Positions 3,768-8,927 of a stretch of 64,000 nucleotides of DNA are shown here, piece by piece. Source of the DNA: an uncultured Ectothiorhodospiraceae bacterium (GTDB taxonomy: Bacteria; Pseudomonadota; Gammaproteobacteria; UBA9214); the NCBI GenBank assembly GCA_947258515.1, contig CAMYIO010000001.1:9373-73372 (forward strand). The letters are read 5' to 3'. The first letter of the stretch is position 1, and each line of letters begins with the position of its first letter. The notes under the pieces are model-generated. The model did not search any database. It had not been told where the DNA came from and worked only from the letters and a program-made list of their open reading frames with translations. Position numbers and translations under genes: made by a program.

Positions 3768-4331
3768 ATGAAGGCAAACCAGGCAGCCAATCAGGTACGC
3801 ATCATTGGCGGCTGCTGGCGCGGACGCAAACTGTCTTTTGCGCCAGTGGCCGGTGTGCGTCCAACGCCTGACCGGGTACGCGAAACACTGTTTAACTGGC
3901 TCAGTCCCGTGATCAGGGATGCGCGTTGTCTTGATCTGTATGCCGGTAGCGGCGCGTTGGGAATAGAGGCCGCATCACGTGGTGCGTCCAGCGTGGTGCT
4001 GGTCGACAGTGATCCGCAGGTTGTGGCCAGCCTGCGTGAGCAGTTGCTGCTGCTGGGTGCAACGCAGACCGGGGTTGTGCAAGCAGCTGTTGAAGGCTGG
4101 CTCTCTGCACCGGGCAGTCCCTTTGATATCGTGTTTCTGGACCCGCCTTTCCGGAAAGACCTGCTGCCTGCCTGTATGCAGGCACTGGAGAGTGGTGGCT
4201 GGCTGGCTGAGAACGCCCGTGTCTATATTGAGGCTGAAAGTGATCTTGAACTGCAGATACCGGGAAACTGGGAGCTGACGCACAGCAAGCGCGCGGGCCA
4301 GGTGGGCTACCATCTTGCGAGGCGCATTTGA
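3768..4331 (+). CDS. rsmD: 16S rRNA (guanine966-N2)-methyltransferase RsmD
   Basis: RIIGGxWRGRKL, a SAM-binding motif (LDLYAGSGALGIEAASRGA) and the DPPF catalytic motif are present. The length is about 187 aa. Confidence 0.85.
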   Translation: MKANQAANQVRIIGGCWRGRKLSFAPVAGVRPTPDRVRETLFNWLSPVIRDARCLDLYAGSGALGIEAASRGASSVVLVDSDPQVVASLREQLLLLGATQTGVVQAAVEGWLSAPGSPFDIVFLDPPFRKDLLPACMQALESGGWLAENARVYIEAESDLELQIPGNWELTHSKRAGQVGYHLARRI

Positions 4332-4423
4332 AGGTGGGGTGCCGACACGAAATGCCACCAGGGTGCGTGACAGACATTCCACAGACAGGGTGAATGTAGC
4401 TGTCAGGTGATCCAGGCGTATGA

Positions 4424-6960
<2,537 letters not shown>

Positions 6961-7055
6961 CCCGCGATGTACAATTGCCGGGTAACTGTGAATGTTTTAC
7001 AAAGTGCGCAACAATCCATGACCGGCAACGCCGGCTTCATTGACGTAGCGGCTAT

Positions 7056-7188
7056 CCTTTTACGCCAGGTCGATAATCTTGTAAACGGTGAATAGCAGTA
7101 CCACACCAATCAGCAGGTAGGTTTCCATTGTGCCAATGCCGAGCGTGTGTGAGATTGTCAAAACCGTTTTGCCAAGTATCGAGTCCAT
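7056..7188 (-). CDS. Putative 43-aa small membrane protein (not in the ORF track, which has a 60-aa cutoff)
   Basis: My own translation of the minus strand gives MDSILGKTVLTISHTLGIGTMETYLLIGVVLLFTVYKIIDLA*. A strong RBS GAGAGGTAAGAG sits immediately 5' of the ATG at 7188. There is one predicted TM helix. The frame differs from track ORF 7052..7234. Confidence 0.35.
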
Positions 7189-7407
7189 CTCTTACCTCTC
7201 GCGAAAAGTTTGGGCCTGCAGTGTAAGGCGACAACTCACACGCATGTTGCCTTGTCGTAGATAAACGCCGCGATTCATTATTAGTATGCAGCGCATCTTG
7301 TGTCTCACCAGATAAAAAATGGAGCCTGTCTTCATAGCTGATGCTGCGCAGTTTAACAGCACCTTGTACGGTATTTAATACTAGTATATATCCGCAGGAA
7401 AGATAGA

Positions 7408-7427
7408 TATTGATTAAGTAATCAATA
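7408..7427. promoter_or_regulatory. 20-bp perfect palindrome TATTGATTA-AG-TAATCAATA (candidate dimeric regulator operator)
   Basis: The 9-bp arms are exact reverse complements separated by 2 nt. It lies in a roughly 600-bp low-GC non-coding stretch, about 220 bp upstream of the small ORF at 7188. Confidence 0.4.
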
Positions 7428-7790
7428 ATAAGCTTACATATCTCGTTTATAGCGTCGCTTTACAGTGCAGGGGAGTCAGGGCTACGTCAGGCAGGTTTAG
7501 ACGTCGATTCGTTTAGTCAGATAATTGGCATAGTGGTCACCTGCTGTTCGTGTGTGTCAGGTTGTTGACCATCAATGCCGTCCTCTGATAAATCCATGCC
7601 GATGCTGTCCGCTGGTCTCATCTGGCCGTGTTCGGATTTCCCGGAAAGAACGGCGGAACACCGGGCTGCCGTTTGGCGTGCGAAAATAATACAAGCCATG
7701 CCAGGCAAGACCGGCAGCGGATCATTAAAAACAGCTTGTCGTAGTGATGTGACTTAAGCCTTTGGTACCCGCAGTATCGTTTTACCTGTC

Positions 7791-8051
7791 CTAATGCTTT
7801 TTGCCGGATTTGTCAGACTGGTCTTTTTTTGTTTCCTTATTTTTGTTCATGTCCTTGTTCTTTTGCTTCTTTTTCTTGCCCTGCTTGTCTTTGTTGTTTT
7901 CATCACGTTTGAAGCTGGCGTTGTCGCTGGCATTTTCCCAGGCCTGATCATCGGGCCCCTTGTCACCGCCGGGGGCAGCGTAGCTGTGTAGTGGCGTAAT
8001 CAGTAGTGATAGCGCAGCGAGCATTAAAAATCGTATAACAGACTTCATTGG
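7791..8051 (-). CDS. Small secreted, extremely lysine-rich low-complexity protein
   Basis: The signal peptide is MKSVIRFLMLAALSLLITPLHSYA. The predicted mature chain of about 62 aa is roughly 35% Lys (QGKKKKQKNKDMNKNKETKKDQSDKSGKKH). The start is taken at the internal Met of the track ORF. Confidence 0.55.
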   Translation of the reverse strand, partial: PMKSVIRFLMLAALSLLITPLHSYAAPGGDKGPDDQAWENASDNASFKRDENNKDKQGKKKKQKNKDMNKNKETKKDQSDKSGKKH

Positions 8052-8114
8052 CATCTCCATGGAAAGGATTGATTTACCCGTAAACAACGCTTGCGAGCGG
8101 TGTGATTATAGCTG

Positions 8115-8927
8115 TTAGCGCTGGCACTTCGGGCAGTAAAAAGTCGATCGCTGGCCCTGGCGTATCTCCCTGATGGGTCTACGACAGCTGATGCAGGGTT
8201 CGCCGGCTTTGCCGTAGACGTTCAAATGCTGGCCGAAATACCCCGGTTTGCCATCGCCATTGACAAAGTCCCGCAGCGTGGTGCCACCCTGATCGATGGC
8301 GTCGTTGAGTACCTCCTGTATGACCTCGGCCAGCAGCCGGTATTTATTCCGGCTGACCTTGCCGGCGGCACGTTTTGGGTGAATGCCGGCCATGTACAGG
8401 GCCTCGCTGGCGTAGATATTGCCGATGCCAACCACGATGTGGCTGTTCATGATGAATTGCTTGACGGCGACGGTGCGATTGCGCGAGCGCAGGTACAGGT
8501 AATCGCCGTTAAACGCCTCGCCGAGTGGTTCGTAACCCAGCGGCTTGATGAGGCGGTGTTGCATGGCCGGCCGGCGCGTCCAGTGCAGGCTGCCGAAGCG
8601 CCGCGGGTCGGTAAAGCGCAACGCTTTATCACCGAAGACGATATCGACATGGTCATGCTTGCGCGGCGGTTCGGCAGGCGCAATGATTCTCAGGCTGCCG
8701 GACATGCCAAGGTGCAGGATGGCGGTACCGGCATCCGTATCCAGTAACAGGTACTTGGCACGACGCCTGACGCTGTGGATGATCTGGCCGGTCAGTTCTT
8801 TTTCCAGCCGTTTTGATACCGGCCAGCGCAGGTTCGGATTGCGCACAATGACACGGCTGACACGCTGTCCGCTGATGTAGGGGGCAATGCCGCGGCGGGT
8901 GGTCTCTACTTCAGGGAGTTCAGGCAT
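8115..8927 (-). CDS. mutM: Formamidopyrimidine-DNA glycosylase
   Basis: The N-terminus is MPELPEVE with the catalytic Pro2. The C-terminus carries a zinc finger (CxxC...CPxCQR). The size is 270 aa. Confidence 0.92.
   Translation of the reverse strand: MPELPEVETTRRGIAPYISGQRVSRVIVRNPNLRWPVSKRLEKELTGQIIHSVRRRAKYLLLDTDAGTAILHLGMSGSLRIIAPAEPPRKHDHVDIVFGDKALRFTDPRRFGSLHWTRRPAMQHRLIKPLGYEPLGEAFNGDYLYLRSRNRTVAVKQFIMNSHIVVGIGNIYASEALYMAGIHPKRAAGKVSRNKYRLLAEVIQEVLNDAIDQGGTTLRDFVNGDGKPGYFGQHLNVYGKAGEPCISCRRPIREIRQGQRSTFYCPKCQR

Follow-up and report, generated by a model that had tools for sequence, protein, structure and literature searches.

Catalogues cover small exported disordered proteins poorly, and a mechanism is known for just a few, such as Asr. 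Asr of Escherichia coli is described as a periplasmic, intrinsically disordered chaperone/aggregase in a passage of PMC10746267 that cites Ren et al. (2022). We analyzed a gene for a small Lys-rich protein, predicted to be exported, on the minus strand of a 64,000-nucleotide stretch of DNA from an uncultured Ectothiorhodospiraceae bacterium (contig CAMYIO010000001.1); "the window" refers to this whole stretch. An earlier note, made from the letters of the DNA, had proposed a tiny secreted polycation of no described family. The protein belongs to a recognizable, undescribed family from uncultured sediment bacteria, unnamed in every library searched. Periplasmic charged disordered proteins are already known as a kind; what is new is the family itself and not a new category. 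Its noteworthy features are a sharply conserved motif, a tail whose charge drifts and, in the window copy, a chimeric 5' end.

Asr (NF033636, an acid-shock protein of Enterobacteria) is like the present family in being small (a precursor of ~100 amino acids (aa)), Sec-exported, basic, Lys-rich and disordered; it acts by charge and not by way of a folded domain, and its gene adjoins the tiny membrane small open reading frame ydgU, which recalls a 42-aa open reading frame (ORF) downstream of the window gene. The window protein has an Asr-like build, with a predicted signal peptide, an isoelectric point (pI) of 9.6 and a tail with AlphaFold predicted local distance difference test (pLDDT) values of 51–62, and this amounts to analogy, not membership. 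Asr is a K/H/A/Q repeat protein and is known to have neither the KGPS..AYE.A.DNA.FKR motif nor the acidic residues that make the window family mixed-charge. Membership in the Asr family was rejected: the window protein gave no match at E ≤ 1, and distant members gave full-length scores of 17–21 bits, below the cutoff of 50.

Hydrophilins are reportedly delimited by a Gly content >6% and a mean hydrophilicity index >1, criteria said to be those of Garay-Arroyo and colleagues in 2000. With 8.2% Gly and a grand average of hydropathy (GRAVY) of −2.5, the mature window protein lies within these operational bounds. It shares with hydrophilins and late embryogenesis abundant-type proteins an extreme hydrophilicity, disorder and a premium on composition over sequence, and in many tails of its family an acid block is paired with a Lys block, as in the charged segments of plant dehydrins. 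However, hydrophilins are grouped by physicochemical character and not by homology, and the known bacterial examples YciG, YjbJ and RMF are cytoplasmic, whereas members of the window family are predicted to be exported and carry a specific N-terminal motif.

SilE and PcoE, proposed periplasmic sponges, are likewise small, Sec-exported and disordered when free, and they bind metal through His/Met motifs. A His/Met metal sponge was rejected for the window protein, whose mature form has 1 His and 1 Met, which has no Pfam or NCBIfam match and which has no metal-resistance genes nearby. CigR (NF040487) shows a weak compositional likeness, being small with a hydrophobic N terminus followed by a basic Gly/Lys-rich stretch; membership was rejected at 13.7 bits and E = 0.06 against a cutoff of 78. 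A cationic antimicrobial peptide or bacteriocin was also rejected: hydrophobic residues make up 3% of the tail, the neighboring genes include none for immunity or export, and the PADLOC and PHROGs searches were empty.

Library scans covered the window protein together with 59 and a further 20 family members. Searches of Pfam, NCBIfam, PHROGs and PADLOC returned only sub-threshold compositional noise (LMP1, MAP17, PFF1_TM, CigR and Asr), and the view of the earlier note that no described family has this composition held in these libraries and in PDB sequences. Full-text literature searches found the motif strings in no paper of the library searched, and the literature on periplasmic disordered, Lys-rich or polyampholyte proteins yielded no description of this family.

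Identification of the gene and its product

The gene and the parts of its product are as follows.

7791..8048, minus strand: coding sequence of an 85-aa preprotein, with the ATG at 8048..8046 and the TAG stop at 7793..7791.
8055..8058, minus strand: Shine-Dalgarno-like GGAG, 6 nucleotides (nt) upstream of the ATG and kept in the homologous 5' regions of related loci L007 and L003.
7977..8048, minus strand: predicted signal peptide, residues 1–24 (MKSVIRFLMLAALSLLITPLHSYA), with an n/h/c layout and a predicted signal peptidase I cut after SYA (between HSYA and AP).
7902..7964, minus strand: conserved motif, residues 29–49 (DKGPDDQAWENASDNASFKRD), whose columns are invariant or nearly so in alignments A1, A2, A3 and A6.
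7794..7901, minus strand: low-complexity charged tail, residues 50–85 (ENNKDKQGKKKKQKNKDMNKNKETKKDQSDKSGKKH), 42% Lys, net charge +9, GRAVY −3.1.

The minus-strand ORF to which the earlier note had drawn attention is real, but the reported span of 7791–8051 took in an upstream CCA (Pro) codon. The ORF list and the sequence place the gene in an open frame of 7791..8087, and the start that agrees with every homologue is the ATG at 8048..8046. The 85-aa protein is identical to database protein P0001.

To assign the coding frame, most weight was given to conservation. Across eight loci, the region encoding the signal peptide and motif differed mainly at third codon positions, and the ratio of nonsynonymous to synonymous differences (pN/pS) was 0.2–0.6 in 28 of 28 pairs. 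Because third-position changes dominate and pN/pS stays in this range, the minus-strand frame is the coding frame, and on this comparative basis 7791..8048 is a genuine protein-coding gene. A conserved frame on the other strand had been named in the earlier note as one outcome that would overturn the gene call; the substitution pattern favors the minus-strand frame. The openness of the ORF was rejected as gene evidence, since AAR/GAY-rich DNA encoding Lys and Asp also keeps shifted and antisense frames open, as it does over long spans in homologues; an open frame is therefore weak evidence here. A very hydrophobic antisense ORF of 65 aa (MLFAGFVRLVFFCFLIF…; 7794..7991, plus strand) mirrors the Lys/Asp/Asn (AAR/GAY) codons and is not to be annotated. 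The purine-rich coding of the tail also accounts for a locally low GC content and an AT skew of −0.5 to −0.6.

The predicted mature protein has 61 aa and a mass of 6.9 kDa, with pI 9.6, GRAVY −2.5 and a net charge of about +6. Lys had been put at ~35% of the mature form; counting gave 17 of 61 mature residues (27.9%) and 15 of the 36 tail residues that follow FKRD (41.7%). When the window was translated in six frames, 230 ORFs reached 60 aa or more, and of these the present one is the most Lys-dense, with 15 Lys in 36 aa against 9 for the runner-up. The mature protein had further been described as almost entirely K/D/N/Q/E, and the quoted run QGKKKKQKNKDMNKNKETKK is indeed present. The first ~25 mature residues, however, are not low-complexity: they hold the conserved motif, the sole sequence-conserved part, which the earlier note had missed.

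The signal peptide is built from MKSVIR, FLMLAALSLLITP and LHSYA; the basic n-region, 13-residue hydrophobic core and S-Y-A at −3 to −1 (Ser at −3, Ala at −1) bear out the earlier call of a canonical signal peptide. It aligns with the signal peptides of all family members, and AlphaFold placed a helix over residues 2–22. In PDB sequences the family profile matched only positions 1–24/32 of Fab chains that had been expressed in the periplasm, a stretch that is apparently their leader peptide. Taken together, these features show a preprotein with a predicted Sec-type signal peptide, and hence a putative small exported protein. It contains no Cys and thus no lipobox, so it is not a lipoprotein. 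N-glycosylation was considered and rejected: the protein has two N-A-S triplets without the D/E-x-N-x-S/T context of PglB.

The motif takes the form KGPxxQAxxNASDNASFKRD in the window. The pattern A-x3-A-x3-A-x-F-(K/N)-R after K-G-P, within ~10 residues of the cleavage site, was found in KGPDDQAWENASDNASFKR (residues 30–48). Against the family profile, P0001 scored 103 bits (E = 3.4e-24). AlphaFold, run with a 59-sequence alignment, gave a mean pLDDT of 64 and no packed fold, with a short helix of moderate confidence (pLDDT ~67) over residues 32–43 (PDDQAWENASDN). Across the tail pLDDT was 51–62, in keeping with the disorder predicted earlier.

An unnamed family with a fixed motif and a variable tail

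The homology search that the earlier note had recommended uncovered an unnamed family. The single sequence as query found 18 homologues, and the number rose to 135 with a profile built on the N-terminal 55 residues. When 1.84 billion cluster representatives were searched exhaustively with HMMER, 201 clusters matched at E ≤ 1e-3, 60 of them at E ≤ 1e-10. The family thus comprises ~200 clusters at 50% identity, with lengths of 48–290 aa. One spurious JGI label aside, the sole name that the sources give is "hypothetical protein". For named members, NCBI records list metagenome-assembled genomes (MAGs) of Desulfobacterales, Desulfobacteraceae and Candidatus Omnitrophota, and genome matches add MAGs of Gammaproteobacteria and Arenicellales; no member from a cultured organism turned up among the homologues found.

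Every listed member shorter than 400 aa has the same three-part layout of signal peptide, motif and charged tail. The signal peptides end in a small-x-small cleavage site, and the motif starts a few residues further on. Its consensus is K-G-P-S-(D/E)-x-A-Y-E-(H/R/N)-A-(N/S)-(D/E)-N-A-(S/K/R)-F-K-R, with Ala at i, i+4 and i+8; another version besides that of the window is AKGGEKGPSDRAYERASDNASFKRD. In 208 distinct motifs the three Ala (A0, A4 and A8) and F10 were invariant or nearly so, and position 3 was His in 61.

Two copies of the motif were detected in seven proteins (P0132, P0141, P0177, P0195, P0226, P0236 and P0256), and HMMER matched three stretches in P0141. Some of these proteins (P0177, P0195, P0226 and P0236) have Pro/Thr/Ala-rich linkers and no obvious signal peptide. 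These features suggest that the motif is a module which other architectures have taken up as well.

Variation was also seen directly beyond the motif and at the C terminus. A distant subfamily has a second block, (V/I)GDWFAT(I/V)GKSxEEK…ERKA, straight after the motif, and a D-W pair 2–4 residues beyond FKR is kept in many other distant members. From these two observations, the ancestral conserved unit may have been longer than that of the window clade. In one clade the tail closes with (I/M)T(S/A)(D/E)E(Y/H)IQNKFGIQ, a segment absent from the window protein; P0015 and P0017 end ahead of it. The members concerned are listed here.

Second-block subfamily: P0176, P0191, P0200–P0202, P0213, P0214, P0234, P0240, P0242, P0243, P0246, P0248, P0250, P0251, P0255 and P0261.
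C-terminal-segment clade: P0007–P0012, P0014 and P0016, metagenome relatives, and L001 197..451.

Tail statistics were compiled for 236 family members. Tails are 10–144 residues long and hypervariable in sequence and length, yet their composition is kept: pooled residues are 26% Lys, 17% Asp, 10% Glu and 6% Arg, and the medians are 0.62 for the charged fraction, 0.06 for the hydrophobic fraction and +0.07 for net charge per residue. The window tail, with a charged fraction of 0.59 and a hydrophobic fraction of 0.03, is a family tail by these measures. Net charge runs from −14 to +14, with 65% of tails net positive and 25% net negative. Near-identical genes or motifs carry tails that differ by runs of Asp or Lys. 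Many tails have poly-Asp blocks beside Lys/His blocks, or DR repeats, and in some members KD, DR or SPT repeats or D7–D9 blocks beside His and Lys are found. The homologue in L007 (4980..5339) has seven tandem SPT repeats (SPTSPTSPT…) in its tail, an example of repeat expansion. As judged from these sequences, the family tail is a mixed-charge polyampholyte, and it offers a clean natural example of a tail apparently selected on its composition and not on its sequence: net charge drifts over about −14 to +14 beside a constant motif.

These data bear on the earlier proposal that the mature protein is a periplasmic or secreted polycation binding DNA, polyphosphate or lipopolysaccharide (LPS), or a matrix component; acting by electrostatics, it might equally bind acidic exopolysaccharide or neutralize the envelope. 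The window copy itself is cationic (tail net +9, mature net +6, pI 9.6), net positive tails make up 65% of the family and Lys, at 26%, is more frequent in the tails than any other residue. Net charge, however, is not conserved across the 236 homologous tails, which keep charge density instead: the median per residue is only +0.07, a quarter of the tails are net negative, long poly-Asp or DR blocks are frequent and even close relatives of the window gene span −1 to +13. The sole conserved segment is itself acidic/polar, and no conserved neighbors for matrix, extracellular DNA or LPS functions were seen. Since the window tail lies at the cationic extreme (93rd percentile of net charge per residue), a polycation role suits this copy but is not a family property, and we consider it unlikely.

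The acidic blocks raise a different possibility, that the tail stores cations with low affinity and high capacity or modulates how minerals form. Asp blocks, often with His nearby, would bind Ca2+, Mg2+ or transition metals, much as SilE/PcoE-type sponges or Asp-rich biomineralization proteins do, and Lys blocks would aid solubility. D5–D9 runs beside His and Lys occur in many members (e.g. DDDDDDDHKDKKK and KHHDDD), Asp and Glu make up 27.5% of pooled tail residues and the motif places E/D, often with H, at i/i+4 on one helix face; named members are from MAGs, and the title of related locus L009 refers to a mud sample. Set against this, the window tail has 4 Asp, 2 Glu and 1 His and no acidic block, His is rare in general (median 2% of the tail), motif position 3 is His in just 61 of 208 motifs and metal transport or resistance genes are not consistently adjacent. 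Overall, we judge this explanation improbable.

It was also considered whether the ~25-residue N-terminal peptide could be the whole function, as a secreted ligand, signal or inhibitor, with the tail being a disposable solubility or pro-region or unconstrained slippage sequence. Sequence conservation is confined to the motif, tails can be as short as 10–13 aa (P0015 and P0173), their length is free to vary among near-identical genes and in the window copy a stop codon has cost the tail 3 C-terminal residues compared with P0019. However, a charged tail composition with ~6% hydrophobic residues is maintained over at least three named lineages, and this non-random retention argues for selection on the tail; moreover, no gene for a processing protease, receptor or transporter is conserved nearby. 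A function residing in the peptide alone thus seems to us distinctly unlikely, and it is probably tail composition, rather than tail sequence, that is selected.

Proposed mode of action

The gene, its export and its architecture are far more secure than any mechanism. By analogy with Asr and the hydrophilins, though as a member of neither, the product may be a periplasmic disordered protein that docks via its N-terminal motif, a tentative reading that we favor without calling it probable. According to this reading, the product would be exported to the periplasm, where the conserved motif would serve as a specific module. The motif would form a short helix with a small-residue face (Ala-x3-Ala-x3-Ala; A0, A4, A8 and Y1) and an opposite acidic/polar face (E2, D/E6 and N7); this opposition of faces suggests helix docking or self-association, so the motif might dock on a widely conserved envelope component or pair helix to helix. 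The tail would be a disordered, hydrated polyampholyte or polyelectrolyte acting by its bulk properties (hydration, charge, entropic exclusion and ion buffering), and it could shield or solubilize envelope proteins and buffer local ions under stress. The window copy would then be a cationic variant of a general theme. The near-invariant residues, the repeat copies and the AlphaFold helix over residues 32–43 support the motif as the selected module.

Several points weigh against this reading. No characterized homologue was found among the family matches, and no conserved neighbor points to a docking partner. The likeness to Asr is compositional only, the window protein having no Asr match at E ≤ 1 and the best family member on the Asr model (P0176) reaching 20.9 bits against a cutoff of 50. 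The motif helix has only moderate confidence (pLDDT ~67), and AlphaFold showed no confident helix pairing in the two-motif member P0132 (mean pLDDT 66, no packed fold). The signal peptide call rests on rules and profile matches, and the sequence would fit release to the medium as well as periplasmic placement.

A bolder extension of periplasmic docking, which we regard as a long shot, is that the motif is a new docking or self-association module, sometimes in tandem, that tethers hypervariable tails to some universal envelope component, for example peptidoglycan, an outer-membrane protein or a protease. The tails would then form a tunable charged brush setting the ionic/mineral micro-environment of the periplasm in sediment bacteria of several phyla, and a rapid turnover of Lys or Asp runs would fit tail charge to local chemistry. 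Should the motif turn out to signal periplasmic docking in general, it would be of value to biology and as a tool alike; otherwise, this is an ordinary conserved hypothetical gene. The motif, which can be synthesized and used in pull-downs, gives a sharp experimental handle.

Origin of the 5' end

The 5' end of the window gene differs in origin from that of its relatives. In these, a gene for a secreted protein of 156/169 aa lies immediately upstream of the K-rich gene (the counterpart of the window gene), with a terminator-like hairpin between the two. The 156/169-aa protein belongs to no Pfam family, and its gene is absent from the window.

8017..8112, minus strand: chimeric 5' segment, comprising a −10-like TATAAT (8110..8105), the 5' untranslated region (5'UTR), the ribosome-binding site (RBS) and the first ~11 codons.
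L003 3714..4184 and 4288..4470: 156/169-aa protein gene, then the K-rich gene.
L007 4366..4875 and 4980..5339: 156/169-aa protein gene, then the K-rich gene.

By tblastn, the 169-aa protein of L007 matched window positions 8078..7962. DNA alignment A7 showed that the TATAAT, 5'UTR, GGAG and ~11 codons (MKSVIRFLML) correspond to the 5' end of the 156/169-aa gene and not to that of the relatives' K-rich gene, whereas from about codon 11 (…AALSLLITPLHSYAAPGG…) the window aligns with the K-rich gene; the homology switch thus falls inside the signal-peptide codons. The two adjacent genes of the relatives encode unusually similar signal peptides, ending in …LLPLHTMA and …LLMPLHSYA. A deletion between these two similar coding stretches, by which the 5' end was captured from the adjacent gene, is the simplest explanation, their likeness apparently having supplied the recombination site. 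The spacing between Fpg and the −10 box is 180 bp in L007 against 4 nt in the window; with only 4 nt left, the −35 region is gone, and the K-rich gene is possibly co-transcribed with mutM. An assembly artifact is excluded, as P0019 and P0020, from independent metagenome assemblies, have the chimeric N terminus as well. RBS, ATG, signal peptide and frame are all intact in the chimeric gene. The local history illustrates how gene fusion can come about through similar signal-peptide coding sequences, the deletion having seemingly made a working chimeric gene.

A change at the 3' end was also evident. Where the near-identical metagenome proteins P0019 and P0020 have a Gln codon (…KKHQDR, then TAA), the window gene has its TAG (7791..7793), and this single-base change leaves the window copy 3 residues shorter.

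Such changes could point to an ORF that is spurious or in decay, in which purine-rich low-complexity DNA stays open by chance and yields no functional product: the 5' end is a deletion chimera, the 3' end has a premature stop relative to P0019, and low-complexity AAR/GAY DNA keeps several frames open, the antisense included. Against this, the motif and signal peptide are under purifying selection, with hundreds of homologues in at least three named lineages; the chimera has kept its RBS, ATG, signal peptide and frame; and the same chimeric N terminus recurs in P0019 and P0020. Conservation largely refutes this reading, and the chance that it is correct is very small.

Genomic context and non-coding elements

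The window gene has mutM, a DUF4340 protein gene, GGT and the 42-aa ORF as neighbors. Its position between mutM and a low-GC non-coding stretch was confirmed: 7189..7790 holds no conserved ORF and has a GC content of 40–52%, against ~60% in the flanking genes.

8115..8927, minus strand: mutM/Fpg, assigned by Pfam.
7060..7188, minus strand: 42-aa ORF (MDSILGKTVLTISHTLGIGTMETYLLIGVVLLFTVYKIIDLA) with a hydrophobic C-terminal half.
~7350..7390, minus strand: non-coding element of ~45 nt (TATACTAGTATTAAATACCGTACAAGGTGCTGTTAAACTGCGC), upstream of the 42-aa ORF.
7680..7716, minus strand: predicted hairpin (7716..7699) and T-rich tract (7694..7680), ~75 nt past the stop codon.

Within one gammaproteobacterial clade, the gene order is ABC-auxiliary, DUF4340, Fpg, variable genes, K-rich gene, sometimes the 42-aa ORF, and GGT on the opposite strand, and the neighboring proteins are 66–90% identical to those of the window. 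Assignment of function from gene context was rejected, as the Fpg…GGT synteny is confined to this clade. Distant members lie in unrelated contexts (L013, L017, L018 and L020), which include an AhpC-type redoxin with a PMT glycosyltransferase and radical-SAM enzymes, sigma-54, a GGDEF protein, and an RND pump with hemerythrin; the genes downstream of distant members show no homology to one another. Because these contexts are unrelated, the gene is considered a stand-alone unit whose context gives no functional clue. At the distant, low-GC locus L013 (6486..6821), the family member is succeeded by a 111-aa secreted protein without a Pfam match and, after that, by the PMT-family glycosyltransferase and two radical-SAM enzymes, an arrangement unlike that of the other loci.

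The 42-aa ORF is probably a small membrane protein. L001 and L003–L007 have it in the same place, flanked by the K-rich gene and GGT, with 74–95% identity; it has no family in Pfam, NCBIfam, PHROGs or PADLOC, and loci further removed lack it or have no detected copy.

In the ~45-nt element, the blocks TACTAGTATTAAA (which holds the palindrome TACTAGTA) and TGCTGTTA.ACT are invariant in the window, L007, L003 and L001, and the spacer around them is not conserved. It has no Rfam match, and no convincing sigma-70 or sigma-54 promoter was seen by eye; possible roles are those of an operator, of a promoter or of an element in the 5'UTR. An RNA explanation of the low-GC stretch was rejected, since Rfam searches were empty over 6900..8200 (E ≤ 1) and over the whole window (gathering score).

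Downstream of the K-rich gene, a simple terminator scan flagged 7663..7651 and not the hairpin at 7716..7699. In L007 the stem of this hairpin is preserved, with bases changed in either arm, and the T-rich tract is also shared; together, hairpin and tract form a possible intrinsic terminator.

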